The notes under the pieces: generated by a model
The model's database searches: none
Told to the model about the DNA's origin: nothing
The model's input: only the letters and a program-made list of their open reading frames with translations
Shown: piece after piece, positions 1,188 through 64,000 of the stretch
Layout: each line of letters starts with the position of its first letter
Numbering within the stretch: the stretch's first letter is position 1
Translations under genes and position numbers: made by a program
Source of the DNA: Amphiscolops sp. MND2022
Taxonomy: Eukaryota
DNA length: 64,000 bases
Direction of reading: 5' to 3'
Assembly (NCBI GenBank): GCA_964187785.1
Contig: OZ076409.1
Span: 56,856,001-56,920,000 of the forward strand

Positions 1188-1188
1188 G

Positions 1189-1206
1189 TGGCGCTCCTGG
1201 GTGGGC
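1189..1206 (+). promoter_or_regulatory. Primer-binding site, tRNA-Asn-like
   Basis: TGGCGCTCCTGGGTGGGC is complementary to GCCCACCCAGGAGCGCCA, close to the eukaryotic tRNA-Asn 3' end as I recall it (...GCCCACCCAGGGACGCCA). Confidence 0.75.
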
Positions 1207-1273
1207 ATTTCGTTAATTTGCTATCGTGTTACAACTTGTTACTTTGATTTTGCTTTTACTGGCTGTTTGGGAG

Positions 1274-4206: not shown

Positions 4207-4218
4207 AGAAGGGAAGAG
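4207..4218 (+). promoter_or_regulatory. Polypurine tract of element A
   Basis: AGAAGGGAAGAG immediately before TGTGGAATTTTTGAATT, an imperfect inverted match to the LTR end AATTCTAAATTTTCTACA. Confidence 0.8.
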
Positions 4219-9523: not shown

Positions 9524-9538
9524 TAGAAACTCGTTTTT

Positions 9539-9556
9539 TGGCGACCACAGAGGGAT
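9539..9556 (+). promoter_or_regulatory. PBS, tRNA-Arg(TCG)-like, 15 nt downstream of the LTR
   Basis: TGGCGACCACAGAGGGAT resembles the complement of the tRNA-Arg(TCG) 3' end as recalled (TGGCGACCACGAAGGGA). Confidence 0.65.
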
Positions 9557-15185: not shown

Positions 15186-16276
15186 AAGAAAGTGGCAAAC
15201 GATTAAGGCCCGGGGAGTCGACTAAGGCCCGTTGAGTTCAGTGGAGGATAACAGCACTTCCTTCAACCTCATTGTAAACTGACAACGCCCTGAGGATTTC
15301 ACTACCTTTGGTAAGGGACACTTGGCAGTGTGATGCCTTTTCAAGCAGCTATTTATCAATCTTGCCGCCAAAACCTTAGTTTTAGTCGTGTAAACGTCGT
15401 CATATTTTTGTTTCTCTGCCTCTTTGAGAAGTCTAACTCAAAATACTTCTATAAATGTAATAAGTAACCCAAAAATTCTACATGTATCTCTTCGCCCGAA
15501 AGGTGCGATTTTTGTTTTTTTTTCAAAGATTTCCAGTAGTTTCCTCCAAATTTCTGCGTGGTATCCAGAAAAAACGGGAGCTCGCGCGCTCCAGATATCA
15601 AAACTGCAGGATTTTGTCTCTTTTCGGCTACTTTACTCCAGTGCTTATGCTTATGAGCAGTTCGTAGTTTGCTTCTGATGGGTTCCTTGACAGATGCTAC
15701 TGAACTCTATACAGGTATGGAGCTTCACATCAGTGCGTGTTGCCCAAACCAAGCCGAACTGTAAAAAAAAGTATCGAAGAAACAGCCTGTTTTCCTTTTA
15801 AACAATGGTTTTTCCACTGAAAAAAATTTTTAGCGAAAAGAACTTTTAACTGTGCTGCAAACTGAAATTTTATTGCCGTGGAAAAGATGTTTTTCATGAG
15901 AACCACGTGCGTTTTGGAGCCTGAGCGCTCCGCAAAAGAAATTTTAGGCGTCCAAAGACAATGTGATAGCAAGATCCTACTCAAATTTGGTGCAGAAAAC
16001 TCGTGCTAAAAAAGTGGTGCTTTTTTGATTGATGTATGGAATCTTGGATTTGATCAATTTCAAGGTGCATTTTTGAGTACTGGTTCTCTAGCTCTCGAGC
16101 TAGCTCTGTTTAAACAGTTTCTGGACGATGCAGGTTCTCTGGATGGCAAGAAGCAAGACCTCAGGGTTGCCCAATCAGCAAAAGATGACAGTGCCACTGA
16201 ACCGTTGCAACATCACCAGTTTGATGTTGCGATGTATTCAATGCCAGCCTTTCAGCATGACAGGGACGTCATGCTT

Positions 16277-16292
16277 AAAGCCCGGGGAGTGA
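16277..16292 (+). promoter_or_regulatory. PPT-like tract of element B
   Basis: AAAGCCCGGGGAGTGA directly before the 3' LTR. Confidence 0.65.
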
Positions 16293-17077
16293 TGTAACGG
16301 CAAGCTGTGGTACAGCAATATCAACCGATTTTGCAACTTTGACATGTTCAGAAATTTTGTCAAAAATTCTAATCCGATGTGTGACGTGGCACTGAGCATG
16401 TGATTGCTCTTTTCGCTGTTTCCACGAAATTGGCAGGTACTTCGACAACAAAGAGCAAGAACGAGCAAAAACACGGGCGCGCCGCCATGACAGAAGCCAG
16501 AGACGGCAAGAACATCTGAAAATAGACTCTTTTTGATGTGCTAACCCCGGTTTTTATCGATTTTCAGCATTATGCTACCCTATGTAGCAGAAACCGGTAA
16601 AATGAGTCTTTTTGCTTAATTGTCCTTGTTTGGTGCTTGGAGCCCCTGCGCCCCAGCTTTTTAGCTGTGTGGTTTGCCATTCCGATGTGTGCTTTGATGT
16701 ATTTTTGCTGGATTTAGCCGTTTGAACTAGCGCTTGCGCTAGTTTGTGCAATATTTGATCTTATTCCCCATTTTAGATATTATTCCGATATAAGATGGAA
16801 AATGGAATTTTACACTGTTTATTCTTGGCATTGTTTTTAAAGGCTGTCTAAACGGTGGTCCCAGGCAAAGGGCCGGAGACGGATGCCCGTTATTCTCAGC
16901 AGTTACAGACTGGGACCAGGCCAGAAAGCGTCCTACAAGACGGTTCCCCCACCTTGGGACTGGCTCCTTCGGAGGGAAAATGAGCTAGGGCTGCGGAGAT
17001 CTAGGTCCCGGATCCTATTCGCTGTTCTAGTTCCTCCATTCTAAGTTGCGGTTCAAGCGCCAGCGCTTATCGTTACA
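16293..17077 (+). repeat. 3' LTR of element B (785 bp)
   Basis: Matches 8740-9523. Confidence 0.92.
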
Positions 17078-24216: not shown

Positions 24217-24354
24217 TACCTTCTGTTTGAAGCTCACGATAATAGATTAAAATAAGAACATGAAAGATCTCCGATGCAATTACACGTGTAATTGCATCGG
24301 AGATCTTTCATGTTATTATTTTAAACTATTATCGTGATCTTCAAACAGAAAGTA
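24217..24354. repeat. 138-bp loopless palindrome
   Basis: Centred on 24285/24286 (ACAC|GTGT); perfect over 24257-24314 and four mismatches over 69-bp arms. Confidence 0.95.
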
Positions 24355-38312: not shown

Positions 38313-38968
38313 ATTATATTCTTTTATCCGGAATATGGTTTTATTATAGATCAACTTGAAACTTCAACACTGACTATGTCTCGTGAATGACTTTTTTTAA
38401 TAGATGCGAATACCTGCCTACCTCCAGGAGAGATCTAAGAGATTTCCTAAAGAAATAACGTCAATAGTTTAGGTATGGCGTTTTAACAGAATACGGTATT
38501 TTATTAGTGTAATTTTCAAAAAGATAGAAGTTCGTTAGATACACTTCTTAGATACAAACAAGACGCCCGCTAAGCACCGGGAGTTTTTCCGCCTTCTTCA
38601 CCTTCACCAACTGAGCCATGGCTATTTTAGGAGTGGGGAATAGTATTTTAAGTATAAGATATAAAATTCAGTGATTTTAGATCTTAATCCCTTCAGATAT
38701 TATTCCCGTCCTGAAAGTTTAGACCTTATTCCCTTTAGATCTTATTACCGTTTTTACTTTAGATATCATTCCGCCCTCTAAGTTGTTTTAGTTACTTGAC
38801 TATTTACCTAACTAGTAACTGAAGTATTCAAGTAGCTATATAAAATAATCAAGAAGTTGAGTCGACTGAGGACCTGGAAGGAGATTTGGCAGAATTTCGA
38901 GAAAAAACGCAACACAGATCATGATTTTCCTCCCCTATTAAATGTGGTCGGAAAACAAAAATCATAAT

Positions 38969-40463
38969 TGTAAGAACTTTGACCCGTGGTCTCTCTTAGA
39001 TCTCCCACAGATCGTGAATCTTTCTTTGCAATCTTTGTTTTAGGCCCAGATGCGTTTTCCCTATTTTCCTGGCTACTAGGGGACGAACTGGCCTCGGTGT
39101 CCCTGTGCCTCGTAGAGGACATTGAGTTAGCAATGTTTTGAATTTCTGGAATGACTCTTTCAGCTATAGCTGTTGTAATAGCTCTATTTATTTGACTATG
39201 CATCATTGACATCATAGAGTCCATTTCTTGAGATAATCCGAGGTTAAATTCATTTGAGAAAGTTTCAAAGAACTGTCTGACTTCATTTTGTCTCAGTAAG
39301 TCATTTTCATGCGAGTAATCTCTATATTCATTTTCTAGGTACGCGTTTGTATCAACGTCCCCGTGGGTCGACGACTGATCTATTGCTTCAGCTAATTCCC
39401 TTTTTATGGGATTATTATTGCTATTTCCCACCATCACGTCTAAGTTTTCAAAGTCGGACATCATGTCCATTTCTCTAGATTTCCTAGCTTTCGCTTTCTG
39501 ACGTCTAGTAGAAGGCATAAGAGATTATTGCAAGAGGTAAGAATTTAAATTAAGTTCTCAAGCTTGCAAACAGAGTTTATTTGAACGGTTTTAACAAACT
39601 GGTTCTAACGGTATCAAACAGTTGTTCCCCGGGGCTACGTGTCCCGGCTATATATACATGAATTTACATGACATTCAGTATTTCAACAGTCATGAGCTAA
39701 AAATAGCCTTAAGGGCTTTCTAAATATAGACTCAGCTATAAATAGCAACAATGACATTATCGTGACGTCACTCAGTTCAAAGGACTCCCCTGTTGGATGT
39801 TATGGCGGGAAGCCCGTGAGTCCGCAAATGCAATAAACAGCATACATGTATGAAATAAAACAGATTACATGCGTTTCAACATTTAACTGCTTTTCATGGC
39901 ATTGTAAGTAATAGCACTCTGTCTTGCATCATTCATGAGTCCTTTTGGGACTAATTATGTATATTGTAAGTTATTAGAGCATCATCAATTACGTAAGCAA
40001 TAGCACTTACTGGTTAGCACCTTTAATTTAATTGTGGACTCAGTGTCCGAGTGACACGAGCGGACTAGCACTTTATCGACCGACGGCATATGGCCGTCTA
40101 GTCCTTTGATTAAATAACTCAGTACAGCAACAAATGAAAGTATTACTGCACTCTGATTGGATAACGAGTTAATTGGACTGGTAGACCAAGGCGACAGGCA
40201 AGAAATCATTCGAACGCGTTTCCTTTACCTGTACGCCTTGGTGTCCAATTAACTTACGTATTAACACCAGTATATTAACTTTACATGTGATTATATAATA
40301 CCAAACATATTGTGATATAAAATATGAGGTTTGCATGACTTCTTAAGATAATTTTAAGAGTTTTGTCTGTATGTTTATTTTAGAGGAAGTGTGTAGGGCT
40401 GCACTTTCTTATAATTGTGGCAAATTGAATATACATTCCCATCACAGGCGGACGCCTGGGACA
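38969..40463 (-). repeat. 3' LTR of element C (1495 bp)
   Basis: Matches 53881-55375; TG...CA termini; contains a second copy of the gag 5' part (ORF 38919-39518). Confidence 0.95.
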
Positions 40464-41214
40464 CTCCCCCTGGAATCAGCATAAAACAGCCCACTCTCAA
40501 TCTTTCCAGGAGGGCCAGTCTTCTTGCGTTGAACTGCTCGGCTGATTCTCCCCGTATGGCCGTTTTATGAAGGTAATCAATGACTGCCTCATCTTGAATT
40601 TGTTCCTCAGATTTCCCGCAAACGAGGCAATCTGTACAGCCTGAGATATAGGGGTTGTCACCGCCATTCGGTCCCCTGAAGTGGATGCCGTTGGAATGTT
40701 GCTGACTGTTACTAGTAGTGGCTTCTGCTGCTATCCTCCAGTCGCCTGACGGGTATTTATCCCTGGCTGGGGGTGACATGGGCGTGTCGACCATGGGAAT
40801 TAGTTGGCTGCATAAATTGATTGGGTGGTCATTTCTTAGCCGTGAGTCTCTCGCAATTGGTCCTCTGCCCATTCCCAAGTCAAAGTAGCCAGCATCGAAC
40901 ATAGGCCCAGGGATGTACGGTAGCCTGGGAGTTGCAGCACGAGCCACTTCTTGTTTACTGGCAGTAGAGGGAATTGGAATACTTTCTGAAGTTGACGGTA
41001 ATTCCATCTGCCTCTCCACACACTGAGCCAGGAGGGCCACCTCGTCGTCATCGGACAGGCTTTCCAAATCGTCAACAGATGCACTGCTAGCGCATTCCAT
41101 GTCGTCGTCTGAGGAAATGTAGATTACCCCGTCTCCGGGTGCTGCCCCTTGGAAGTCCTCAGGGTAATATTCCGGGGACTCAGAGTCAAAGTGGCTTGAC
41201 AAGAATTTATCCAT
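40375..41214 (-). CDS. Accessory sense ORF of element C (279 aa; acidic N-terminus, SIM-like VIYISSDDD, CxxCxxC), last 89 nt inside the 3' LTR
   Basis: Intact ATG-to-TAA ORF, GC-richer than the flanks; reads through the PPT (IPGGVSQA); no signal peptide or TM segment evident. Confidence 0.75.
   Translation of the reverse strand: MDKFLSSHFDSESPEYYPEDFQGAAPGDGVIYISSDDDMECASSASVDDLESLSDDDEVALLAQCVERQMELPSTSESIPIPSTASKQEVARAATPRLPYIPGPMFDAGYFDLGMGRGPIARDSRLRNDHPINLCSQLIPMVDTPMSPPARDKYPSGDWRIAAEATTSNSQQHSNGIHFRGPNGGDNPYISGCTDCLVCGKSEEQIQDEAVIDYLHKTAIRGESAEQFNARRLALLERLRVGCFMLIPGGVSQASACDGNVYSICHNYKKVQPYTLPLK
40464..40473 (-). promoter_or_regulatory. PPT of element C
   Basis: Minus strand CCAGGGGGAG abutting the TGTCCC LTR start. 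Confidence 0.8.
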
Positions 41215-42493
41215 GATCAATTTCTTGGCTATTTTGGAATTGACTGAAGGTTTTCAAGTTTTGACTTTCTGAAGAGTTGCTGATTTTTGAGAATGAAACT
41301 GAAACAATGGCGATTTTACTCTCCGTCGACTTGCGGGAGTTTTCGTTTGAGTTTCCCGGGGTTTTACTCTTCCTTGCTGACTAAATTTTCAATAACAAAA
41401 TTCCTTCCTTCTAGAACCTTTCAACTAGCCGCTCGGTCTTCTTTGAAAATGCCGACCGAGGCTTTGTTGACTTACATCACCTCTATCAACACTCCCATAT
41501 TAAACGCGTCGCTTCAAGTGTTTATTAACACTCATTTAGCACTTAAGAGTTTCAAGAGGGTGAAGATATGGCATACGGCTACGCCGTCCTTCAGCAGTTT
41601 TGATTAGCCAATAGGAATGCAGCATGATTCTTCCTGAATGAAAATGGCTCCTCAAGGTCGTAAATCCATATAAGGACTAATGTAAAATGACCTTGAAATT
41701 GAATGAAATCTTGGAAAATCATGAAATAATTTGTAAAAATGGTACAGTTTCGAAATAAATAAGTGATTGTAGATATCGCTGGCAGACTCCATCCACATGA
41801 TAATGTAAATTGTAAATAATTGCAAATTTGACACCAAATTGTATAGCCACGAACTCCAATTTTGACACTTTGTCACATTGCCGATTCACCTTTCAATTCT
41901 TTTACATTTGAATTCTCTCCAATTACTCTCTTTGTATTATCGCCAGTATTTAATCTTCTTTAGTCTTCTAGTCTTTGAGTCGTATTTATCCGTACTTTGT
42001 CTGAAGTTTCCATTTATATTTTCTCCTCGTTACACCTTCTGTGGATTTCTTGGGTCAACCTAGGACAATCGACACTGAGTCCCTTTTGGCAAACCCACCC
42101 ATATTCAGCATTCTCTCCCTCTTTCAAAGAAGAATCTGCTCCTCTCGCTCAGCAGCTGCTGTATAATCACTATTTCGGATCCAAAATACTTCTCCTCTGC
42201 AGATCGACCTCCAGGACTGACAATTCATCCGGCATCCGCAATCTGCACTCAGAACTTTTCTCCTTCAATTTAGTCCGCACAGGTCAGTAGCGTTTCAGGG
42301 GTTTTCATTTCTATCTTTGGTAATGAACTAATTTGAGGCTTGATCAGGGCTCTCATTTCATTCACGTACTTCCTGTCCCGTAACTTAAGCATTCACTTGA
42401 GTTCAAATATCTACTTCCGGAAGGTTTTTTAATGCGGCAATGGACTCTTTTTCAGGAAGTTCTCCGCTTGAATTTATCTTTTTCTATTTAGAC

Positions 42494-45400
42494 ATGTCGT
42501 CCGAAGAGCACAATGAAGTTGTTCCCGCTACCGCTACTGGGACTCTGGTAGAAGAAGAAGTTCCACAACAGTCCGAGGAAACAGTCGTCAACCAGACCGC
42601 CACCGCAATAAAGGACGCTGAGTCCAAGCAGCCTGATCCGCCGAAAGACAGCTCATCTAAGACTGGTCCAACCCCCAGCCCTTCCACCGATGAGAGTATC
42701 TCTGCGTACATTGAGCGTCAGTTGCAGACTCTAGGTTGTCAAGATACTGGACTGGACATCTCTTTCTTGCCTCCTACCACATCTGCCATCGTGGACAATG
42801 TGCTAAAGCCAACCACTGCGAAAGCTTCGGAGTCGGAGCCGATCCCTCACGTCGCAACCGGGCCGGCAGACAAGGAGTCTCCCGAATTTGAGACTGGCCG
42901 AACAATTGACATCGTCAGTGAAGCTGAGTTTTCCGTCACCAAGGCGGATTATTTTCAAACAGACACCAGCGACGTTGAAGAGCTTCTCGATAGTTCTGGA
43001 GCTGAGACTGTCAAACAATCTCCATTCTTACTTACAATAGAGACACAAAGCGCCACCGGGTCCGAGGCCCGTAAGGAGACTGAACAATTGTCCTCAGCAG
43101 GGTTGCCAGACGTCTCTTCCCCAAAGCTTTTTAGTCCTACCAAGCCTCTATCTGCTTCAGCTCGCACTCTCATTAATCAACATTTCAGCGAGACCAATCC
43201 AAGTATCCTTCCAGTAGGACACGCAACAGTAGCCTTCAATCAAGGACAGGTACATTCCATTTTGCGCGCCGTCTCCACTGAGACCATTACCTCTTCTTTA
43301 CACCAAATGAAGAATATACTGGAAGAAGCGATTCGGGTGGGGTCCGTTCCCAAGGCACCTCACAAGGACCCGGTAAACAGCGGATCAAATGTTTCCGCAA
43401 ACAGGCTGACAGCCCTGGACCAGATGGGCAAGATAGCGACATCGGGACTGAGGGGTACACCAGTGGAGCCCTTAGTTCAGAGGATGAGTTTGTCATCAAC
43501 TCACAAAGGACTGGTAAGGAGCTTAACATCATTCATCCCCCAAGTCCTCCTGGCCAGGCTTCGTCCCTGGCGCCTTGGCCGACACCCATGCACCAAGTCC
43601 CCAGTCCAGGTTTCTGCTCAACTGATTATGAGCCGTTGGCCACATTGAGCACTGACCAAGCCTCCGCTTCTAGTCCACCCCGCAAACGTCGCCGTCTTCC
43701 AGGACGCACTGGTAAGATAATGAAGGAGGCTTATTTCAAAGGATCCAATCGACCCGAACATTCGTCACTGGCCCACTCGACCCGGAGCACAACAAGCATA
43801 AATTCTATTGTCAAATATGCAAGACGAATGTTTCCATTTTCACAAAAGGTGCCCGGGAGATTGTCCGTCATTTCCAGTGTGAATCCCATTTCCGCAAGGA
43901 CCAGCGCTGGAGATATGAACATCTGAAGAAGAAGGATAAGGTGACTGGCCGAATCGTCTATGAGGTCAGGGGGAAGAAGGGCCAACTGCTAACACCTCTG
44001 GAACTTGAAAGAGAGAAACCCCTCTTTATGCAGGCTCCTTTAGTAGAAACTGGATGCAGCTACCCATTTTACGAGGACCATATGGCAGGCCTGGGATCCA
44101 TAGCTGGGCAGGAAGAGATCAGACTGTGCGTCCAAATCTCCATGGTTGCACTCTTTGCTCCTCGCTGTGAGGATTTATACACCCTTGAGTTGCTGTGGTC
44201 ACAGATTGGCACTGTAACCAATCTTCAGAGCCTGTTCTCTCCATACGATTGGGGTTCCTCCACATTGACAGTAAGTATCGTTAGTTCCTAGCCTCAGGGT
44301 TCTTCCGTACTAGCATAGCTTAGGTATATTTTCATCCTTGTTGATTTGTTTCAGACAATTTTCCATCACATCTTTCTCTGTGGAATTGCGGACATCGCGT
44401 ATCATGTCAGTGTCACGGGCCAATACTCTTTGGAGTTTGAGATGCGAGGCACCTACAGCTTTGTCTCGATTCGTTTCTGGAAGGGCGAATTCCTCAACGT
44501 CTTCTGTTTACTGCGTTACCGGACTGCTTCAGAGCCTGCTGCCGGTTTCTTGTTGGCACTTTCCCGTCTCCTGTCCGTGTTGTCAACACAGCCCCAAATC
44601 GTGAGTGTGTCTGGATGTCCCGCTGAGCTAATCCCGCTTCTTGAGCGTTCTTGCTTCTTCCAAAAAGGATTTGAGTACCCCTTTCGGTTTGATGCACTTT
44701 CTTTGCCAGACATGATGCACGAACGATGGGGGAAGCGTGTTTGGAACCATCAGCTTTTTTTCACAGCTGAAGTTTCTGGTTGCCTTCTTGGACGGCTGCA
44801 GTGGACAGCCCTGGGCCGCCCTAATGCCTGAATTCGTCAAGGTAAGGGTATTGTCTGTTCGACTGTAGGTCCAAGTTTAGACTGCCTCTAATGCACATAT
44901 TATCTGTAGGCTATGTCTACCCATCGTGTGGAGGTCGCTGCTGTGCCAACCATATGTTCGGAGCTGATTGCGAACTGGAAGTCTGTGCACCAACACTTGA
45001 CAAAAATTGCGCCTCCACAAGTTAATCAGGGGGTCAAGAGCAAGCCCCAAAGTCTCGAGTGGGAAATCATATCTGATGATCTCTTCACCATCAAACTAGA
45101 ATTCTTCGCACGAATTGTTCGTGATTGTTAGTATTTTGATCTTTTCTTTCTGTTCTGAGGACACAATGTCTCAGTTTTATTTGCCATTGAATAAAGTTCA
45201 TACAAGGTGTAGCAGATTGACATATTTGGTCCAATGACGTCGTTAGGACCAGGTGGGACAATAATATATTTTGTTTTCCAGACACCAAGAGCTTTGAGAG
45301 TCAGTTTGCACAACGAAGGGATAGCGGTTTCTACACTTTCCGCGAATTTCATACCTTCATCCGAAAACTGGCTGCCCGGGCTCTTCTCCCCAAACACGTA

Positions 45401-48400
45401 CCTGAGATGCTGGACTGGAAGTCGCTATGTGACTTACAAGGACAGGACTGGCGACAGCTGTCAAATCGCGATTTCTTGAGTCGGTTGAAACTCAAAGAGA
45501 ATCTGGATGCTGCATGCCTCGTTCGTGTCAAGAAGGTCTACAGTGAGAAACAGCCGTCCCCCGAAGGAATAGAAGCAGCGGTTGAGGCCACACGGGACGA
45601 TTTCGCCACCAAGGCTCGAGGTTACCTCGTGCATCTTTTGAAAGTCTTCCTTGCTGTCCTCAGCAGGGTTGCCAGACGTCTCTTCCCCAAAGCTTTTTAG
45701 TCCTACCAAGCCTCTATCTGCTTCAGCTCGCACTCTCATTAATCAACATTTCAGCGAGACCAATCCAAGTATCCTTCCAGTAGGACACGCAACAGTAGCC
45801 TTCAATCAAGGACAGGTACATTCCATTTTGCGCGCCGTCTCCACTGAGACCATTACCTCTTCTTTACACCAAATGAAGAATATACTGGAAGAAGCGATTC
45901 GGGTGGGGGTCCGTTCCCAAGGCACCTCACAAGGACCCGGTAAACAGCGGATCAAATGTTTCCGCATACAGGCTGACAGCCCTGGACCAGATTGGCAAGA
46001 TAGCGACATCGGGACTGAGGGGTACACCAGTGGAGCCCTTAGTTCAGAGGATGAGTTTGTCATCAACTCACAAAGGACTGGTAAGGAGCTTAACATCATT
46101 CATCCCCCAAGTCCTCCTGGCCAGGCTTCGTCCCTGGCGCCTTGGCCGACACCCATGCACCAAGTCCCCAGTCCAGGTTTCTGCTCAACTGATTATGAGC
46201 CGTTGGCCACATTGAGCACTGACCAAGCCTCCGCTTCTAGTCCACCCCGCAAACGTCGCCGTCTTCCAGGACGCACTGGTAAGATAACGAAGGAGGCTTA
46301 TTTCAAAGGAATCCAATGGACCCGAACATTCGTCACTGGCCCACTCGACCCGGAGCACAACAAGCATAAATTCTATTGTCAAATATGCAATACGAATGTT
46401 TCCATTTTCACAAAAGGTGCCCGGGAGATTGTCCCTCATTTCCAGTGTGAATCCCATTTCCGCAAGGACCAGCGCTGGAGATATGAACATCTGAAGAAGA
46501 AGGATAAGGTGACTGGCCGAATCGTCTATGAGGTCAGGGGGAAGAAGGGCCAACTGCTAACACCTCTGGAACTTGAAAGAGAGAAACCCCTCTTTATGCA
46601 GGCTCCTTTAGTAGAAACTGGATGCAGCTACCCATTTTACGAGGACCATATGGCAGGCCTGGGATCCATAGCTGGGCAGGAAGAGATCAGACTGTGCGTC
46701 CAAATCTCCATGGTTGCACTCTTTGCTCCTCGCTGTGAGGATTTATACACCCTTGAGTTGCTGTGGTCACAGATTGGCACTGTAACCAATCATCAGAGCC
46801 TGTTCTCTCCATACGATTGGGGTTCCTCCACATTGACAGTAAGTATCGTTAGTTCCTAGCCTCAGGGTTCTTCCGTACTAGCATAGCTTAGGTATATTTT
46901 CATCCTTGTTGATTTGTTTCAGACAATTTTCCATCACATCTTTCTCTGTGGAATTGCGGACATCGCGTATCATGTCAGTGTCACGGGCCAATACTCTTTG
47001 GAGTTTGAGATGCGAGGCACCTACAGCTTTGTCTCGATTCGTTTCTGGAAGGGCGAATTCCTCAATGTCGTCTGTTTACTGCGTTACCGGACTGCTTCAG
47101 AGCCTGCTGCCGGTTTCTTGTTGGCACTTTCCCGTCTCCTGTCCGTGTTGTCAACACAGCCCCAAATCGTGAGTGTGTCTGGATGTCCCGCTGAGCTAAT
47201 CCCGCTTCTTGAGCGTTCTTGCTTCTTCCAAAAAGGATTTGAGTACCCCTTTCGGTTTGATGCACTTTCTTTGCCAGACATGATGCACGAACGATGGGGA
47301 AGCGTGTTTGGAACCATCAGCTTTTTTTCACAGCTGAAGTTTCTGGTTGCCTTCTTGGACGGCTGCAGTGGACAGCCCTGGGCCGCCCTAATGCCTGAAT
47401 TCGTCAAGGTAAGGGTATTGTCTGTTCGACTGTAGGTCCAAGTTTAGACTGCCTCTAATGCACATATTATCTGTAGGCTATGTCTACCCATCGTGTGGAG
47501 ATCGCTGCTGTGCCAACCATATGTTCGGAGCTGATTGCGAACTGGAAGTCTGTGCACCAACACTTGACAAAGATTGCGCCTCCACAAGTTAATCAGGGGG
47601 TCAAGAGCAAGCCCCAAAGTCTCGAGTGGGAAATCATATCTGATGATCTCTTCACCATCAAACTGGAATTCTTCGCACGAATTGTTCGTGATTGTTAGTA
47701 TTTTGATCTTTTCATTCTGTTCTCAGGACACAATGTCTCAGTTTTATTTGCCACTGAATAAAGTTCATACAAGGTGTAGCAGATTGACTTATTTGGTCCA
47801 ATGATGTCGTTAGGACCAGGTGGGACAATAATATATTTTGTTTTCCAGACACCAAGAGCTTTGAGAGTCAGTTTGCACAACGAAGGGATAGCGGTTTCTA
47901 CACTTTCCGCAAATTTCATACCTTCATCCGAAAACTGGCTGCCCGGGCTCTTCTCCCCAAACACGTGCCTGAGATGCTGGACTGGAAGTCGCTATGTGAC
48001 TTACAAGGACAGGACTGGCAACAGCTGTCAAATCGCGATTTCTTGATTCGGTTGAAACTCAAAGAGAATCTGGATGCTGCATGCCTCGCTCGTGTCAAGA
48101 AGGTCTACAGTGAGAAACAGCCGTCCCCCGAAGGAATAGAAGCAGCGGTTGAGGCCACACGGGACGATTTCGCCACCAAGGCTCGAGGTTACCTCGTGCA
48201 TCTTTTGAAAGTCTTCCTTGCAGACATCAGCCTCAATGCTGGTATCGTAAGAGGCTTGGTCAGTTTTGATCCAGTAGCCCTCCTGAGTCTGCCGCTTGAA
48301 CAGGCCACATATTGTTTCTCCGCTTTATATCGATCCTTCAGTTTGCGAGGATGGTTGGAGAATTCCCCCGAGGCCGATGCCCGAGACGAGTACATTGATT

Positions 48401-49104
48401 TTGTGGAGCACTTCCGTCAAGCAAATTCTGGAGCCAAGGACACCCCGGAGGTCTTCTCCGACATGATTGCCTTTCTGATGGACATGCTCGAATTGAAGTT
48501 GCGTAAGCATTTGTTCTACATCTTCCAGTTGAGTTGTCTGTGTCTGACTTCTAAATTGCCAGAGCTCCCAGCTATCAAATTCTCTGGAGTTGACTGCAAT
48601 GATCCCCGGAGTAGGCTTTTCGATGTCATCATGCCTGCACAGTCCTACCTCGCTAATGTGGCTAATTCAGTAGCTGTGTGTACTACAGAAGCTTCCCTGG
48701 ATACTTTCAAGGATTTGGAGTTTCGTTTCAGTAGCGGCAACGTCCCAGGAGATCCTTGGACTCACGTAGACAGTTTCGGCAAGGCCAATTTGCATAAGAT
48801 CTTGATCTCAGTTTACAAGGCTCTGGGCAAGAGTGTTCGTCTTGACAACGAGTCCATTTCCAGTTCTTCGTCTAAAGAAGGGGGAAACATCGTAAGCAGT
48901 CCCCCGATAAAGGCAAGAAAGTTAGCTTTCGGATGGTTAGCGGAACTGAAGCCACAAAGTCCTCCGATGGAAACACCCCCGGAACTTCTAAATCTTAAAT
49001 GTACAAATGTACATTTGTTTCTAGACTGTAATTGTTGTAAACTGTTTCGTATTTATTTCATCTATTTGTTGATATGTTCGTGGCCTTGTATCATTCGCCA
49101 CTGA
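42494..49104 (+). pseudogene. Antisense spliced gene inside element C: about 1,200-1,250 aa zinc-finger protein with hAT-transposase-like motifs, disrupted here by a tandem duplication
   Basis: Reconstructed exons 42494-43088+45655-46838, 46923-47408, 47477-47693 and 47849-49104 (or 48998 with a late frameshift); GT-AG introns 46839-46922, 47409-47476 and 47694-47848 all preserve frame; CQIC-x16-H-x5-H finger; NLS-like PPRKRRR. Confidence 0.8.
43089..48221 (+). repeat. Head-to-tail duplication, 43089-45654 and 45655-48221 (about 2.57 kb, about 99% identical)
   Basis: Junction ...gtcttccttgc|tgtcctcagcagg at 45654/45655; ORF pairs are duplicated; the first copy carries three extra 1-bp indels. 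Confidence 0.95.
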
Positions 49105-49228: not shown

Positions 49229-52200
49229 CTAGTATCTGTATTCTTCAGTGAAGTTGGGGTTGGGGTTAGGTCGAAGATTGTATCTCCCTCCTCTAGAGTT
49301 TTCTTCAGAATTTTCTTTTTCCGATATTCCGGGCACGGTAATATCTGCGCCTCTATATGAAACATTTCCTGCATCTTGTAAATCATTAGTGACGTCATTT
49401 TCATTTTGCGTACTATTAATCTTTTCATCCCATAGTGACGACACGTCTCGGCTATTACGCGATTGCGTTCGCGTTTCGTTCTCGTTGACGTCATCCTCGT
49501 TAGAGCGTTCGCTGTGTCCTTCATTCTCGCTTGCGCTGCCACGTTCATTCTCGATGACGTACTTTTCTACGCTGCCGTCCTCAGTGTCGGTCGGCCGGCG
49601 TGTGGCCACGTCGGTCCAATCGACTTTTCTCGGTTCAAATAATTCGTATTCGAAATCCACTTCCCATGAGATACTGTACAAGTCGTCCTGTGGTACTACA
49701 ATCTCATTGTCAGGTTGTAATTTTTCGCCATCATATTTGTCCTCTAAGGGGGCATTTGGAGCGAATTTCTTTCGTCTAATACGATGGAGTATTTGCGTTT
49801 TATTAGTATTCAATCGACGCACAATGTAATTGTCATTGGACAATACTGTCTGAACGACAGAGGGGCCAATCCAGCGGTATTCCCTAAATGGGATTTTTGA
49901 TGCTTGGTTATCCGCTTTAGGTTGTAAAACGAAGCAATAATCCTTCTCTTCAAGCGGAGCGGCTTTGGCCTTTCGGTCGTAATAGTCTTTGTTTTTTAAA
50001 TAGGACTGCATAATGTTCTTTTTAGTCTGGACAATGAGGATTTGTGTCCTCTGTTGTACTTCCTCCGCAAATTCCGTAGTTGGCAAGAAATTTTTATTGG
50101 GGTTATTTCCCAATTTGTGATCTAGGACGTTAAAAGGAATTCTGCCATGAAAGATTTTACTCGGCTCACATCCAATACTGGAGTGGTATGTAGTATTGTA
50201 GTTGAGCACGGCCAATGGCAAATATTTATGCCACTGACGTCGATATTCCCCTGAGGCCATTTTCAAGTTGGTCTTGAGTGAGGCGTGCGTCCTCTCGAGC
50301 TTGCCAATTGTTTGCGTGTGCTTTGTAGTGGCGCATTTGAGTGTTATGCCTAAAAGTTGAGTTATCTCAGCTATGATGGTTGATGTAAATGCGGACCCTT
50401 TGTCCGTAATAAGAGTTGTCGGTAAATATGAATGTTTCGTCATAATGTCTATTATTACTTTGGCTACACTTGTGGCTGTTGCCTCAATTAGCGGGTAGGC
50501 GAATAGGTATCTTGAAAAAACATCAATAGCTGTCATTACTGTTTGGTAGCCTCCACTGGTCGGTAGATTTGGTAACAAATCAATTTGCATGGCGTCTTCA
50601 GGACCGAGGTCCCATTCGGGCAGATTTAGCAATTCCGGTGTAATAGTATTATTAGGGACTCTTTTGTCTCTGGCACACGTTTCGCAGCCTTCTACCCATT
50701 TTTTGACATGTTTAGCTATTCCGGGATAGTAGTATTTTTGGCGAATTTCTTGTAGCATTTTAGATATGCCTGGGTGTCGGTGTGCCATGCCATGTATTGC
50801 TTGTAGTAATTCTTTCAACAAATGTTTTGGCAGTAGAATCTGGTGGTATTTGATTTGGCCTGTTTCATCATAGTATTTCCAGTCACGATTTCGTCTTTGA
50901 GGACAATTCGGTCTAGGTTATTCAAATAATGTCTATACCGAATGTCTTGATGGAGGATTTCTTCAGAGTATTCCTCATTCCGAATTTTTGCTTTTTATTG
51001 AAGCAAGATCGGATCTTTGGATTGTTCTAGCAGTATTTGGTTAGTTCTGCGTAGTTTCTGCGTGAAATTAGTATATTCTTCTACAACGTTTCCAGATATG
51101 GCATCAATCTGGATGGCGGTCTCTGCGACCTTGAGTCCTGTTTTCGACTGCCTTTTTCGTTCCCAAATTTGTACTTCCGTTTCATTGTCTTCCTCAGTAA
51201 AGAATACTTGTTCTACTTCGGACACACCGGCCGATTGTACATTGACCTCAATAGGTTGTGTTTCAACGTCCGCACGAATCTTCAGGACTAACTTTTCATT
51301 AGGGTCCATTTCCATACGGGACAAGTAGTCTGCCGCTGTACTGTTTTTGCCTGGAATGTGAGCTATAGTGAAATTGAACTTAATGACAAAATCACAAGCA
51401 TTCCATAATGGCGGCGGTACGATCTTGGTCTGGAAGAACCTTGTGACCGATTTGTTGTCCGTAAGGATAATTACCGGTTTGGGTGTCCCCCAGAATGTAT
51501 GTCCGAATTCTTTAAATGCGTAATATATAGCGAGAAATTCTTTCGCATATATCGACATTTTGAGTTGGGAAGGAATAAAAGTTTTCGAACCATAAGCAAT
51601 AGGCGCGTAGGATTTCTTGACAGAAGTGAATTTCTGGTTTGGGTCGTCTTCAGTGAGTATAGCGAATCCTGCTGCCGTAAAGCTGGCATCTGTCATCAGG
51701 ACTAGCTGTCGATTCGGCAGTGGTTGCCTCAGGGCTAACTGCCTACATCGATCCAGGTCTCTATTGATTTCGTTAAATTGTTCGATTAACTCGGATGTCA
51801 CTAAGACCTTCTCGTCCTTCTTGAGTAATTGAAAGAAGGGTACCAATTTTTCTGAAAGTCTCGGTATGTAGTTTCTGTAGTAATTGAGGAATCCGAGGTA
51901 TCTTTGCAAGGCCTTTTTGGATTTCGGGAATTTAGTTTTTTCTAGGAAGTTTGTAATAGCTTCCTTTTGAGGTTTGACGCCCTCAGGGGTGATTGTTCTT
52001 CCCAGAAAGTCTATTTCGGTTGCGCCGAAATGGCATTTGTGCTTAGTCAATTTTAATCCAGCCTCTCTGATGCATTCAAATGTGGCTCGGAGGTTTTTGA
52101 TCAAGTGTTCAGCATCATTTGCCGCTATGCCAATATCATCGACATATTGCGCACATTGATCAGCCTTGATAACTCGGTCCAAGGATTCCCTCAAAAAACT

Positions 52201-52752
52201 GGAGAAGGCCGACAGGGCTCTACTGAGTCCTTGAGCCAATCTTCTGTAAGCAAAGGTTCTGCTGGCAAAATTGGAGGCCAGCATTTCAATAGACCTTTGG
52301 TCTGCCATTTGAAGGCAGTGATATGCCTGTGAGCAATCGAGTTTGCAAAAAAGCTTCTTCCCGGCCATATGTTGCGCAGCATCCGTCAAGGTACTAACTC
52401 GGTGGTTATTATTAATATAATCATCGGAGATCAAATTGTTGATCTTCCTAAGGTCTACTAATACCCGAAGCTTCCCATTTGGCTTCTTTTGCGCAAAAAT
52501 AGGACTGGCGTGTTTTGAGAATGGTAATGTGGTTAAGATACCGTATTTGTGGAGTAACGCCAACTCAACCAGGATATCCTCTTTTAAATTGATGGGAGTC
52601 GGTAAGCTTTGGCTATAGGCAGGTGAGTCGTCCTTCGGGGTCAGTTTGACCGTGAACTCCTCGTTCATCCCAATATCAAACCTATGGCGGGCGAATATGT
52701 CGTGAAATTCTACTAAGAGAGCTTCTATTTGTTTGATTTCATGCTGCTGTAG
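49229..52752 (-). pseudogene. pol: Pol of element C: RT, RNase H, integrase; protease missing; stop at 50995 and frameshift near 50880
   Basis: RT: LRVLVDLRKIN, KLDCSQAYH, LAQGL, QYVDD, DFLGRTI. RNase H: TDAS, AKEF, TDNK, ADYLSR. Integrase: H-H-CETC, IDLL, ITDKGSAF, GKLERTH and GPY/F-like WIGP. Confidence 0.95.
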
Positions 52753-54430
52753 TCAGTCTTTTTGGTATTGGTTTGGCTTGAACTAGTAGCCGTCGAGTCA
52801 CTGGTTGTTTTAGATTTGCCTTCCGAGGTTGAAGCATTTGCATCCTTTTGCTCTGTCTGCAGTCTCTTGGGACGCAGGTGGGCACCAGCGCCCTGCCAAC
52901 ATCTTTCAATTGAATGGTTCTCTTTTTCCCGCATGTGTCACATGGTGGGTAAGTTGGGCGCTGTGGTTTTTTGCCATCTTTTTCCTCCCTTTCTTTTTTT
53001 TTCTTGAGTTTAGGACAGCTCTTGTAATAGTGTCCCGTTGCTTTACAATAGGAGCATTGGGCATCTTTGTTGGTATTGATGCCATTAGACAGCAAATTGC
53101 TCTGATTCGTGGACGCCGAGGCCATAGTGGCCATTGGCAAGTCATCTGACTCTTCTAGTGCATTGAGTTCTAGTTCTTTTTCGAGATGAGCAACAATTTC
53201 TTCGTACGTTCCGTTCTCCAACCGGGCCATGTTGACAGATTGTTTTAGTTTTGGTGGAAGTTTTGCGTATAGTAAGCTGTCAATCATGCTTTTGGCATTT
53301 TCGCCAAAAGCCTTTTCAGCCCCTTGGTTCAATTCTTCTAAGAAGTCCGGCAATTTCATGGTACTTGGGTCAAACGTCAGTCGGTGCCATTTGTGTTTTG
53401 CCGTTGCTTGGGATTCCGGTTTAACATACTTTCTCCGGAATATGACCAGTACGTCCTCCAGAGTCTGACGGTTGGTGGAATTTATGTTCCTGAATGTCTG
53501 TAATGCCCCTTTTCGTAACAATGAAAGAAAATGATTGATTTTCATCTGTTCTGTCATTGTAGGTTGCATTTTGATCATCGTATGGAACAAGTCCTCGAAA
53601 AGCTCAAATTTTTCGTTTTTCCCGTCGAATGTCATTGGCGTTGTTTGGACAGGTCTAATGGTCATATTGTGAGGTTTGTTCTGTAAATTGACTAATACAT
53701 CAGCCAATCTATTAAGCGGGTCCTGAGATGTCTCTGGGACCTCGAGGTCCGGGGCTGTCAGAGTCGCATCCAGAGAGACATTGTGGTTAGATTGTTGCCT
53801 CTCCAGGTTGGGGATTGAGTGGATTCGTCCAGTCAGAAATTCAGGGATTTGCTGTTGGGTGTAAATAGCTCCTGTCACCATGTAAGAACTTTGACCCGTG
53901 GTCTCTCTTAGATCTCCCACAGATCGTGAATCTTTCTTTGCAATCTTTGTTTTAGGCCCAGATGCGTTTTCCCTATTTTCCTGGCTACTAGGGGACGAAC
54001 TGGCCTCAGTGTCCCTGTGCCTCGTAGAGGACATTGAGTTAGCAATGTTTTGAATTTCTGGAATGACTCTTTCAGCTATAGCTGTTGTAATAGCTCTATT
54101 TATTTGACTATGCATCATTGACATCATAGAGTCCATTTCTTGAGATAATCCGAGGTTAAATTCATTTGAGAAAGTTTCAAAGAACTGTCTGACTTCATTT
54201 TGTCTCAGTAAGTCATTTTCATGCGAGTAATCTCTATATTCATTTTCTAGGTACGCGTTTGTATCAACGTCCCCGTGGGTCGACGACTGATCTATTGCTT
54301 CAGCTAATTCCCTTTCTATGGGATTATTATTGCTATTTCCCACCATCACGTCTAAGTTTTCAAAGTCGGACATCATGTCCATTTCTCTAGATTTCCTAGC
54401 TTTCGCTTTCTGACGTCTAGTAGAAGGCAT
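52725..54430 (-). pseudogene. gag: Gag of element C, starting inside the 5' LTR; frameshift in the second zinc knuckle near 52920
   Basis: 563-aa ORF with FDGKNEKFELFEDLF capsid-like region and CSYCKATGHYYKSC; CDTCGKK/NHSIERC is split across frames. Confidence 0.9.
53869..53880 (-). promoter_or_regulatory. PBS of element C, tRNA-Leu-like
   Basis: TGGTGACAGGAG directly after the LTR CA; one mismatch to TGGTGTCAGGAG, the complement of the tRNA-Leu(CAG) 3' end as recalled. Confidence 0.6.
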
Positions 54431-55375
54431 AAGAGATTATTGCAAGAGGTAAGAATTTAAATTAAGTTCTCAAGCTTGCAAACAGAGTTTATTTGAACGG
54501 TTTTAACAAACTGGTTCTAACGGTATCAAACAGTTGTTCCCCGGGGCTACGTGTCCCGGCTATATATACATGAATTTACATGACATTCAGTATTTCAACA
54601 GTCATGAGCTAAAAATAGCCTTAAGGGCTTTCTAAATATAGACTCAGCTATAAATAGCAACAATGACATTATCGTGACGTCACTCAGTTCAAAGGACTCC
54701 CCTGTTGGATGTTATGGCGGGAAGCCCGTGAGTCCGCAAATGCAATAAACAGCATACATGTATGAAATAAAACAGATTACATGCGTTTCAACATTTAACT
54801 GCTTTTCATGGAATTGTAAGTAATAGCACTCAGTCTTGCATCATTCATGAGTCCTTTTGGGACTAATTATGTATATTGTAAGTTATTAGAGCATCATCAA
54901 TTACGTAAGCAATAGCACTTACTGGTTAGCACCTTTAATTTAATTGTGGACTCAGTGTCCGAGTGACACGAGCGGACTAGCACTTTATCGACCGACGGCA
55001 TATGGCCGTCTAGTCCTTTGATTAAATAACTCAGTACAGCAACAAATGAAAGTATTACTGCACTCTGATTGGATAACGAGTTAATTGGACTGGTAGACCA
55101 AGGCGACAGGCAAGAAATCATTCGAACGCGTTTCCTTTACCTGTACGCCTTGGTGTCCAATTAACTTACGTATTAACACCAGTATATTAACTTTACATGT
55201 GATTATATAATACCAAACATATTGTGATATAAAATATGAGGTTTGCATGACTTCTTAAGATAATTTTAAGAGTTTTGTCTGTAAGTTTAATTTAGAGGAA
55301 GGGTGTAGGGCTGCACTTTCTTATAATCGTGGCAATGTGAATATACATTCCCATCACAGGCGGACGCCTGGGACA
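53881..55375 (-). repeat. 5' LTR of element C (1495 bp)
   Basis: Matches 38969-40463; TATATATA at about 54568-54561 and AATAAA at 54493-54488 on the minus strand, upstream of the gag ATG at 54430. Confidence 0.95.
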
Positions 55376-55550
55376 ATAATGTAGTAATAAGATTTTATTG
55401 TCTTTCTTAATACTTTGAAAATCTTTTTTTTTCATTTCACTTACCAAGAGGTTTGAGTAAAACATGAAAAATAATCTGAGTAGAACAAATAAAATGTGCG
55501 ATGATTGACTCTGAATTTAGGAGATTCTAATCGCAGCTAAGTATAAAATG

Positions 55551-58967: not shown

Positions 58968-59760
58968 AAACAAGCCGGTATAAGTCGGCGCCATATCTAA
59001 GGCTCAAAAATAGCAAAAGGACATGAAAGTGTCAAAAAACTCAAAGCATCACACTCACAAAAAGTTTCAAAACACTTTCGAAAAACCCAAACGACCGAAC
59101 TGGCGCGCCAGGTGCCCGCTAGCGTGGGCCCCTGGCGCGCTAAAAGGGAGGACCATTTCGGATTTTTAAACATCCATTGGTGCAAAACATCAGAAAATTA
59201 AAGGCGGAAGAACTTTTTTTCGGAAATTTTTTTGGAAAAAAATCTTACAATGCCAAAAAAAACTGAAAGGGGGATCCTTTGGGGTTTTTCAACATCCAAA
59301 ACTTAGTTTGAACTTAGTTTTATACTTCAAACTTAGTTTTATAATCCCCAATACTATCACAACCAACTTTCAGAGGTCAAAAACGTTAGGACAAAACTTA
59401 AACGATGAAAAGTTGCTTAACAACAAGCTTTAACAGCCCCGATGATTTAGATATATCTCAACAACTCATGTTGTTTTTAGTCTGCGCCTTTATGAAATAA
59501 CAAGCCAGGAACAGCCCAAGTCAACGCCATATCTAAGGCTCAAAAGATACACTATTGTTCACTAAAGCTGTTGACAAATGCAATCTCAATTGCTTGTCAA
59601 CTTGTCAACAGCTTTAGTGAACAATAGAGTAGCAAAAGGACTCCAAAGAGTTTTTCTGTTTTCTTCCGAATTTTTTAACATCCATTCTGTAGCAAAATAT
59701 CAAAAAAAAATATGAAGGGGGACCCGTTGCAGACATTAAAAAGCCTCACAAAGGCGAAAC
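58968..59760 (-). repeat. Two truncated HINE-like copies (about 58968-59300 and 59498-59760)
   Basis: Both begin aacaagcc...aagtc(gg/aa)cgccatatctaaggctcaaaa and contain aaagggggaccc-type units. Confidence 0.6.
59550..59629. mobile_element. 80-bp MITE with TA target duplication (Tc1/mariner type)
   Basis: 28-bp TIRs (26 bp perfect: 59552-59577 and 59602-59627), TA on both sides; interrupts the HINE motif that is intact near 59000. Confidence 0.8.
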
Positions 59761-60555: not shown

Positions 60556-62997
60556 TGTCACAGCCCGCTCCCGGTCTGGCTTGTTGTTGCTGACGACTGA
60601 AGATCGGGAGAGGACATGGAGGTAATCTGAGATTCCCAAAATCTTATTTTAACTGGTAACTCTAAAACTTCAACTTTAAAATAAACTGTGACTAAAAATG
60701 TAGAAATACGTCTACATTGCGCAAACCTTAAACGAAAATGAAAACAGAGAATGGAATGAGCCAAAATGAGTTCACGCATTTCCGGTAAGACGTATTCGCC
60801 ACGTCAAAATAGCAACATTCGCCACCTGAAAACTAAATTAAAACTAAATACATTCTAAAACAAAGAAATCATAGTCTAATCTAAATGAAAACGTAGTCAA
60901 AATCATCTCCCAAAGAACATCAATCAGATCTAAAATTAAAAAAACACTGAGACGGCACGCCGAAGAAACTAAGCCTTTTCTAAGAAAGGCAGCCTAATTA
61001 CTCTTTGAACAGCAATTAGTGTGGTTTAGGACGTCAATATTACGCTGAGCAAACAAAGCAGCGGAGAAAATAAGAATACATGTATATTTGTCGTCAGTAA
61101 AACGCAGACAAGTTTGGAGGTATACCAATTGACGTCACTGCCTCGTCTATGCGTACCGGAAAATCATTTCAATTATCCGCCCATACTAATAGCATTACTA
61201 GAAATCATTCCAATTTACCGCCACTGTGACGTCACAGCGCCGGCAGCTAAATAAGAAGCCATTCTCAAGATACTCGTCAGCATTGCGTCAAATTAGTCAA
61301 AATCTCTACTCTGCCAAGAAAACTCGTCAACATGACGTTGACAAGTTTATGAAGCTTAAAATCTGCCAAGAAAACTCGTCAACATGACGCTGACAAGTTT
61401 ATGAAATTGGATGATTTAGGTAAATTTGCCCTATTAAACTAAAAAATTACGCTAAAGTAACGTTAAGAACCTATCAAATTCAATTGTTTTAACCTGTCTA
61501 AGATAAGGAAATGGATATTTATCCAAATAAGATCAATATGGGAAGATATATGTTATGAATCAGTTTTAATTAAAAGTGAAGGAGTAACGATTTGCGTCAG
61601 TCTCACGACAATTAAAATATTGTTCACCCGAACCTAAGGCAGAGAATGTTTTCTAACTGGAATTTTTTCAGTACTCTACATGAATAAGAGTCACAGTTTA
61701 TTCTCTTGTTATTAAACAAGTAACCCTGGTTTTGCCACTTGAAGTTTTTTTATATACACTCCAACAGTGCCGTGGAGCCTGGATTTGCAACCTGTTAACT
61801 TATACTAGTGCTTTTTGTATAACGTTAACTATTATTTTTTATGAAAGCGATCATCAGTGTTGAAGCGCATTAATAGCGTAAACGGTAAATTTGATGTTTT
61901 GTTGCCATTGTTATCACTTTTGTAAAAACTTGTCGCACTTGTCGCGACATGTCAATATTGTTGATGATGAATATATTTGGTACTGTGATCTTAATTTTGT
62001 CTCTAACGAAAAGAAAGAGTCCAAATTCATAGAAATATCGTTCCTAGCGTCATTTAAATAATCATAATTTGGAAGTTAGTCATATGTTGCTCATGCTGAA
62101 ATTCAAAATCAGGTATTTTTGTTCACGTCAGCGTCATCTCAGCGTCAATTTCCCGCGAAAAAGCAGTAAAACAGGGAAGCATTTCCGGTTTGACAGACTG
62201 AAGTAATATCTACTTCCTGCTTGGGAGGAAGCGAAAGGACGCCGGGATGAAATGATATGATCATGTTTGATGACTAACACTAAATAAAGTTCAACGTGTC
62301 TTAAAATTTGACGAAATGTCGACGCAAATTTGGGATCTTCGTTATTTTTTCATCAGTAAAACAGGAAGTGACTAATTGTTCGAGGAAAATTAGGGAATAT
62401 AGTCGTGATCAAATGATGCTGGGAGGGTATAAATACAGTAAAATTCGATGATTAGGGGACTCAGTCTTTTCCAATTGTGAAAATCAGTTATTTCATAACT
62501 TGCTCAATTTTCCAATACTTAATCTCAACTCTGTTGAAAATACTCAGAAAGTAAATTGAATTGCCAGAAATCAATTTCTCTCTACATCGAAATGTCGACT
62601 ACCAGAAGCCAGAAAAGAAAGAACAATCAACAAGAAGTTGTTGAAAACGTAAGTGAAGGTTTTGTTTCGCCAGTCTTAGCGGAAAACTCTTGTTCTTTGA
62701 TTCAAGATGTAGTTGTCGCAGGTCCGTCAAAACCTAAATCTCCTAGGGTAGAGAACAGTGTCTTGGAGAGTTTGACAGTCTCTTTAAAAGAGGAGATCAC
62801 ATCTGAGATCAAAAGTCTTCTTATGGAATCCCAAAGAGAAATGTTGAAGCTCCTAAGATCTGAAACAGGAGAAAATGTAAGAAATAGCATAATAGACGAA
62901 ACGGAGAATAAAACGAGGAGCTTCCATACTCCGACGAAAACAGTACGAATCAACTCTACATCAAATCACGACTCTGACACGTATGTAAGTCGTAACA
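60556..62997 (+). repeat. Putative 5' LTR of element D (about 2.4 kb)
   Basis: TGTCAC...GTAACA; TATAAA at 62428 and TCAGT at 62461; 52-bp-period duplication at 61310-61405. The partner LTR is not in the window. Confidence 0.55.
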
Positions 62998-64000
62998 TGG
63001 TGACAGGAGTCCTGACCGACTCCACAAACCACCCGAAAAGACCCAAAATAAGGTCCCTGGGTCAACCTGCGGCCAAAGAACCTCCAGCGGCGGCCAGAAC
63101 ACTATTCGAAGCAGACAAAACTGACTCCACCACACTACATATGACGAGGGCCCTAACGGCATCACTCCCAACCTTCGATGTGAAATCTGACAAATTCGAA
63201 ATCTTCGAAGACCTGTTCTGTAATAACATAAAAATGTACCCACACCTCACGGAACCCCAAAAAATCAACTACTTCCACTCACTGCTAAGAGGAGACGCCC
63301 TACAGGCGTTCTGCAACATTGAAGACTCCAAGAAGGACTCGCTAGACGACATAATGACGATTTTTAAAAGACGATTTGGAGACTATTTATCAATGGCAAA
63401 AACCAGATGTGAGTGGGACTCACTCAAATTTGATCCCGCAACACAAAAACTACATGAATTCCTGGACGTACTCCAAAAAACGGCGAAAGATGCTTTCGGC
63501 TCGGAAGCCCAACAGTTTATCGACAGAGCAATCTACGCGAAAATGCCAGATCATGTAAAGAAAATCCTCAACAGAGAGTATCTTGAGGACAAACCATACA
63601 ATGATACAGTACTCCATTTGGAGCGGGATATGCAACTCAACGGCCTTGGAGCACCAGATGAAGTAACTCTGGTACCACTAAATGAAATATAACCGGCTCA
63701 AACAAAACCAGAGACAAAACAAATCGAGAACACGACGCAGAACACCAAAAAAGGATACTGCTTCTATTGTAACAAATTCGGACACTACAAGGCCGAATGC
63801 AGAAAACTGAAACGCGACAACTGGCAGCAAACCCGGAAAAATAATGGACAAACCAATTACAGCGCTGGCAAACCGCCCAAATGTGACACTTGCGGCAAAC
63901 CCCACAAGACGGAAGATTGTTGGAATGGAGCTAACTCTGCCAACGACCCACGACCCAAACGTCATAACACACAAGAACGAAAGCCGGACTCCTCCGCCCA
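62592..64000 (+). pseudogene. gag: Gag of element D, premature TAA at 63690-63692
   Basis: MSTTRSQKRK start; FDVKSDKFEIFEDLF; reading through the stop in frame gives CFYCNKFGHYKAEC and CDTCGKPHKTEDC knuckles. Confidence 0.9.
62998..63010 (+). promoter_or_regulatory. PBS of element D, tRNA-Leu-like
   Basis: TGGTGACAGGAGT; same first 12 nt as the PBS of C. Confidence 0.65.

Follow-up and report, generated by a model that had tools for sequence, protein, structure and literature searches.

The locus described here raises the question of whether the gag gene of an LTR retrotransposon can start inside the 5′ LTR and be translated through the LTR end and the primer-binding site (PBS), as a preliminary description of the sequence had claimed. 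The element, called C below, lies in a stretch of 64,000 nucleotides from Amphiscolops sp. MND2022 (contig OZ076409.1, positions 56,856,001 to 56,920,000), which was analysed as a whole and is referred to as the window; all coordinates are positions in it.

Element C and its gag start codon

Self-comparison of the window and reading of the sequence placed C on the minus strand, flanked by two 1,495-bp LTRs with TG...CA ends that differ by 10 substitutions (99.3% identity); paired LTRs, TSD, PBS and PPT were all present (Table 1). Pfam profiles for RT, gypsy-type RNase H and integrase were matched in this order, with PF17917, PF17919 and PF17921 above the cut-off. Ty3 Gag-Pol was among the top matches of pol in a search of solved structures (E 6e-23), and the Atlas gave clusters with the same families. 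There was no Pfam match to a Pao-specific pol family, the pol profiles being gypsy-type, and membership of Ty1/copia, in which integrase precedes RT, was rejected on the RT-RNase H-integrase order found. The Gag protein matched DUF1759, a BEL/Pao-type family, weakly (below the cut-off in C and above it in a second element of the window, D), and one relative matched Ty3_capsid weakly. By its sequence, C can be assigned to the Ty3/gypsy-type LTR retrotransposons, with a small doubt left by the weak DUF1759 match. No Pfam match to env was obtained in the ORFs scanned between integrase and the 3′ LTR.

Table 1. Positions of the features of element C, and of gag in element D, in the window
Feature	Position	Strand	Evidence
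5′ LTR of C, 1,495 bp, TG...CA	53881..55375	-	LTR pair comparison
3′ LTR of C, 1,495 bp	38969..40463	-	holds the same 183 gag codons
TSD, 5 bp, 5′ side	55376..55380		sequence
TSD, 5 bp, 3′ side	38964..38968		sequence
PBS, adjoining the 5′ LTR end, translated in the gag frame	53869..53880	-	sequence
Short PPT, adjoining the 3′ LTR, translated within the conserved PGGVS motif	40464..40471	-	sequence
LTR-coded gag N-terminus, 183 codons	53881..54430	-	ORF, homologs and model
gag ORF, capsid-like core at ~aa 266-430, then zinc knuckles	52739..54430	-	ORF, homologs
RT-RNase H frame, starting directly at the gag end	50995..52752	-	Pfam, structure and Atlas searches
Integrase frame (H2C2 finger, rve core)	49229..50917	-	Pfam
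Accessory ORF, 279 aa, over the PPT, ending 89 nt inside U3 of the 3′ LTR	40375..41214	-	ORF, homologs
Candidate TATA-like run, 138 nt upstream of the gag ATG	54561..54568	-	motif
AATAAA, candidate poly(A) signal, 63 nt upstream of the gag ATG	54488..54493	-	motif
Second AATAAA, within the gag coding part of the LTR	54104-54099	-	motif
Element D gag, same layout as C	62592..63692	+	ORF, homology

This copy of C is defective (~52750 and ~52920, minus strand): a frameshift interrupts gag near the second zinc knuckle, RT and integrase sit in different frames, and no aspartic protease was found between gag and RT, where the gag end joins the pre-RT region directly. Of the 10 differences between its LTRs, six lie within the first 92 nt of U3 (55284-55337 versus 40372-40425; post-hoc p 9e-6), and this clustering suggests recombination or conversion with a related copy. 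Inside C, at 42400-49100, antisense ORFs (plus strand) with a C2H2-like finger, for which there was no confident Pfam family, were observed together with a 2,567-bp tandem duplication (98.9% identity), and these may represent cargo or a nested insertion.

The first ATG of gag, at 54430, corresponds to LTR position 946 and precedes the LTR end by 550 nt (183 codons plus 1 nt). Sequence and homologs agreed that the frame runs from there through the LTR end and the PBS, as had been claimed. The junction reads tAC ATG GTG ACA GGA (Y-M-V-T-G) across the att end and the PBS, and a second in-frame ATG does stand on the boundary. The PBS is identical at 11 of 12 nt to the tRNA-Leu(CAA) 3′ end listed in the PMC13524379 supplement, an end that may not be that of the host. 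No tRNA genes were found in the 64-kb window, and Rfam gave no match in 38000-64000. The same 183 codons recur in the 3′ LTR, followed by 16 codons into the flanking DNA (ORF 39518-38919), and the gag coding parts of the two LTRs differ at only 2 codons, one change being synonymous and the other not. The other five frames of the segment contain 8-26 stops, and a 183-codon open frame in any sense frame appeared in 1 of 10,000 dinucleotide-Markov shuffles.

A TATA-like run and an AATAAA had been reported upstream of the start codon. Both are present, but the counts of such motifs were not above chance (AATAAA, 2 seen versus 1.7 expected; TATAWA, 3 seen versus 2.2 expected). The coding stretch had been labelled as U5; that the LTR encodes part of gag stood, whereas the label is not established, as it is the position of the poly(A) site that would make the stretch U5 or, at least partly, R. 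Two AATAAA are present in C, and none lies between the TATA box and the gag ATG of D. According to PMC3601003, locating a poly(A) site needs RNA sequencing.

Conservation and selection across the gag family

The gag search yielded 2,328 proteins among 8,000 scored candidates. Among the best 120 listed, 112 start at the same N-terminus, a count to be read with the homologs being gene calls ranked by similarity, which are biased toward open frames and related rather than independent. As the LTR ends in ACA, the codon before the junction Met must be NAC, coding for Y, H, N or D. One of these four residues preceded the internal MVTG in 236 of 238 proteins (388 examined), relatedness inflating the independence of this count; in representatives at 50% identity it did so in 21 of 21, with all four states present, against a background of 17%. 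MVTG itself was nearly invariant (118 of 120).

Since 3′ and solo LTRs end in flanking DNA, frames read out of them should diverge after residue 183, with a next codon starting with A. Early loss of homology was seen in 27 representatives that start in the LTR part; 18 of them break at 182-190, 11 exactly at 183, and the remaining nine break elsewhere. All 18 read-out frames (43-95% identity) continue with an ANN-compatible residue, where 43% would be expected (p 2.6e-7). The dual coding that had been proposed for the att/PBS junction was thus borne out by both the residue rule and the position of the breaks. It is extremely improbable that the long LTR of C arose as an artefact, either in this copy or in the assembly, such as through a duplicated gag 5′ end. 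Although C is rearranged elsewhere, with no protease and a 2.57-kb internal tandem duplication, TSD are found at both outer ends, PBS and PPT directly adjoin the LTRs, and the same break point occurs in the 18 read-out proteins and in D; a copy-specific artefact is ruled out by these family-level data.

In D, the gag ATG lies 406 nt before the inferred LTR end (62997), and the 12-nt PBS (62998-63009) is identical to that of C and in the same frame; a TATA and an Inr-like motif are found at -164 and -131 relative to the gag ATG, and there is no second D LTR in the window. C and D are 44% identical in the capsid. Their LTR-coded N-termini, as types, align over the first 13 residues only, and no local match between their upstream regions was convincing: the one obtained lay at different offsets in the two elements, and 26 of 1,000 shuffles scored as high. 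In two D-family Gags, P0205 and P0208, the residue at the LTR end jumps straight into the capsid, in frame, possibly through internal deletions anchored at the LTR boundary. The window also holds two further LTR elements (1-6110 and 8740-17077), the first of which has an ordinary layout, with a gag-like ORF that starts at 1274, downstream of LTR and PBS. A 138-bp near-perfect palindrome (24217-24354) and a 30-bp inverted repeat (59548-59631) are probably small DNA transposons.

The breadth of the layout was assessed in 30 proteins whose capsid core is preceded by at least 90 residues: in 24 the junction motif is internal, three start at the motif and three are without it. In the capsid tree, every main branch had motif carriers, which reached down to 45% core identity. 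The pre-junction segments, which were chosen for the motif, fall into 12 clusters; their common lengths are 93-223 aa, and the N-terminus is basic in most. All families use the frame containing the junction ATG. No related loci were found in metagenome or viral contigs. Taken at the level of sequence, the gag-in-LTR layout is confirmed as real, conserved, selected and family-wide.

The AlphaFold2 model of Gag was of low confidence overall (mean pLDDT 52.8). Its most confident part was a long helix at aa 69-134, with blocks at 81-130 reaching pLDDT 77-89, and residues 136-237, including the junction, were mostly below 50; the first 16 residues form a basic tail. For the LTR-coded segment, Pfam gave no family above the cut-off, and the Atlas no usable match for residues 1-190. 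Foldseek gave nothing at E<=0.001, its top row being the PNMA2 capsid (E 0.12). With VIA-align, only the long helix was matched, and its partners were other, unrelated long helices (Z<=6.7), an uninformative result. The N-terminal helix would be matrix-like and is likely to oligomerise.

Selection was followed at the protein level, in place of dN/dS, by contrasting substitutions shared by at least five of 121 aligned proteins, as representing active lineages, with singletons, which are mostly post-insertion decay; the protein set is biased toward open, similar frames. Singletons were evenly spread (0.65-0.92 per site across regions, the 4-residue junction excepted). In contrast, shared substitutions per site amounted to 0.33 for the basic tail and 0.47 for the helix, against 1.80 for the intervening linker; the capsid stood at 0.02 and the LTR part as a whole at 0.83. 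Their depletion in tail plus helix versus linker was significant (Fisher p 2.6e-4). Within the LTR part, shared changes clustered spatially (p 2e-4) and were of a more conservative kind than singletons (p 1.4e-4): mean BLOSUM values were 1.30 (tail) and 0.50 (helix), compared to -0.35 and -0.59 for singletons. Indels were scarce at residues 70-119, and many in-frame indels were found in the linker parts. Because shared changes are depleted, conservative and clustered while singletons are even, the LTR-coded part of Gag is, as judged from these alignments, under purifying selection as a protein, much weaker than that in the capsid.

These data also bear on whether the LTR frame is open through RNA- or DNA-level constraints or by chance and encodes nothing useful, which we regard as very unlikely. 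The high divergence and many in-frame indels of the linker parts would fit such a reading, as would the lack of a Pfam family above cut-off or an Atlas match for the segment, but a frame of this length would be open by chance at ~1e-4, the shared substitutions in tail and helix are conservative, indels are scarce at 70-119, and the inferred leader-to-PBS region showed no unusual RNA structure when folded (z -1.4).

Start codons, the coding U3 end and a proposed mechanism

In neither C nor D is there an ATG between the TATA-predicted start and the gag ATG, and in C the first gag ATG and the junction ATG are separated by 15 ATGs (10 in frame, 5 out). Two Gag isoforms, the shorter one from the junction ATG, had been suggested beforehand. 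This part of the preliminary description was not supported: a product from the junction ATG is unlikely, because any CA followed by TGG creates that ATG automatically and it stands behind 15 others. The first ATG of gag has a weak context by the vertebrate rule, and that of Met17 is strong. Met17, at 54382 on the minus strand, thus offers a strong start context after a weak first ATG. Leaky scanning to Met17, which would give a Gag without the basic tail, is a likelier source of an isoform than the junction ATG.

It could also be argued that gag truly starts at the junction ATG, or at both, with the LTR frame as a minor or alternative extension. In favour of this, the junction ATG is followed by G at +4, MVTG is nearly invariant, 13 database proteins begin at MVTG (5 in one homolog set and 8 in another), and every family uses this frame. 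However, the att and PBS sequence dictates both the junction ATG and MVTG, database starts at MVTG are gene-caller choices, the 15 upstream ATGs block scanning, the frame upstream is under protein-level constraint, and with a TSS close to the LTR end strand transfer would have no R region to use. We therefore hold a start at the junction to be improbable.

The other end of the LTR is coding as well. The 279-aa accessory ORF falls in a set of 78 clusters including itself, the others at 29-93% identity, and has conserved Cys/Pro motifs; PGGVS lies on the PPT/U3 junction in 39 of the 51 homologs that cover it. The ORF had no match to Pfam or to a known family, and its model was of low confidence (pLDDT 49). 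The shared motif suggests that the homologs occupy the same place in their own elements. This conserved gene, which runs over the PPT into U3, is an addition to the gag-in-LTR observation. Counting both LTRs, 639 of the 1,495 LTR positions (43%) belong to a coding part in at least one of them. As read from its frames, the LTR would encode about one-third of Gag and the tail of a second protein, and both priming sites and both integrase ends of C lie within reading frames.

According to the mechanism that we propose, the LTR promoter would start transcription ~110 nt upstream of the gag ATG, making it the first AUG, and the genomic RNA would be translated from there through the att end and the PBS. 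With the gag ATG on the genomic RNA, minus strong-stop DNA would be at least 550 nt long and, with tRNA-Leu-type priming, probably ~660 nt; this DNA would copy the gag 5′ end into both LTRs in each round. The U3 end would be dual-coded likewise by the accessory gene. Dual coding would cost little because the fixed DNA signals fall in a flexible linker: the DNA-constrained junction (~6 codons) lies in the predicted disordered linker between helix and capsid. We consider it highly probable that this is a Ty3/gypsy lineage whose gag start codon lies in the 5′ LTR, downstream of the LTR promoter, and that works in this way.

As to the origin of the layout, the primer site may have moved downstream into the gag linker, the LTR swallowing the old gag start, for which we would put the chances at about even. 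Alternatively, with slightly less than an even chance, gag began at the ATG formed by CA plus TGG and grew upstream over R/U5. In four Gags (P0248, P0349, P0271 and P0262), the junction motif is found two to three times in frame, which suggests tandem duplication of the att/PBS unit and bears on the origin by a PBS shift. Genome compaction was rejected as the cause, the LTR being 1.5 kb long and the genome repeat-rich.

A further, speculative consequence, which we think unlikely, is that every 3′ or solo LTR acts as a portable cassette (promoter, ATG and stop-free 183-codon Gag N-terminus with basic tail and long helix) that is read into host DNA and seeds the host with truncated Gag, as dose-dependent assembly inhibitors or as helix tags on host proteins. 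If true, inhibition by Gag fragments would be a copy-number control growing with LTR number.

Comparison with known elements

Retroviral genes that run into U3 are well known, such as nef of HIV, sag of MMTV and bel/bet of foamy viruses, and in these viruses gag stays downstream of the PBS. The accessory ORF of C resembles them in crossing the PPT and ending within U3 of the 3′ LTR; in contrast, only one LTR end is coding in those retroviruses, and both are in C.

The closest parallel for gag is Ty1 of Saccharomyces cerevisiae. PMC7969010 gives a 53-nt 5′ UTR, and PMC4974528 places the PBS at nt 94-104, 'localized in GAG ORF'. In Ty1, GAG thus starts inside the LTR and the PBS is translated, as in C, but the overlap, computed from the published positions, is ~13 codons compared to 183 in C, where it includes a predicted helical domain. 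Ty1 also belongs to a different superfamily (Ty1/copia, Pseudoviridae, versus Ty3/gypsy-type), its strong-stop DNA is ~90 nt long against an inferred 660 nt, and its primer is tRNAiMet rather than Leu-type. The statement made beforehand that gag normally begins downstream of the PBS has a known exception in Ty1.

Animal Ty3/gypsy elements (Metaviridae) have the same pol order and Pfam set as C. Among them are echinoderm GAG-POL elements with a tRNA-Leu(CAA) PBS, and their LTRs measure 0.7-1.7 kb in part 1 of the two-part supplement of PMC13524379. In part 1 of its table, gag lies downstream of the LTR in 29 of the 32 rows with LTR coordinates, if the anchor (3001) is the gag start, as we infer; with the same anchor, three sponge rows may overlap the LTR by 4-19 nt. 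Part 1 contains no large gag/LTR overlap, and the 1,512-row table, covered by keyword search, may hold similar cases. A literature search, which spanned titles and the beginnings of abstracts and had most subscription papers outside its scope, retrieved no account of a Ty3/gypsy element with a long gag segment encoded in its LTR, and the accessible parts of PMC7175516, PMC7197481 and PMC5014426 contain nothing on one.

The principle is known from Ty1. What is new is the superfamily, the scale of the overlap, which takes in a whole predicted domain, and the fact that both LTR ends are coding. The family shows that a complete predicted domain of a protein can become part of an LTR, and that dual coding can extend to both priming sites of reverse transcription across a diversified lineage, outside compact genomes. 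Annotation that seeks gag only between the LTRs would shorten these Gags by 110-220 residues, and LTR dating would take in a segment under selection in active lineages. The family would also offer a natural test of LTR boundary movement, of the length limit of minus strong-stop DNA and of Gag fragments from solo LTRs.
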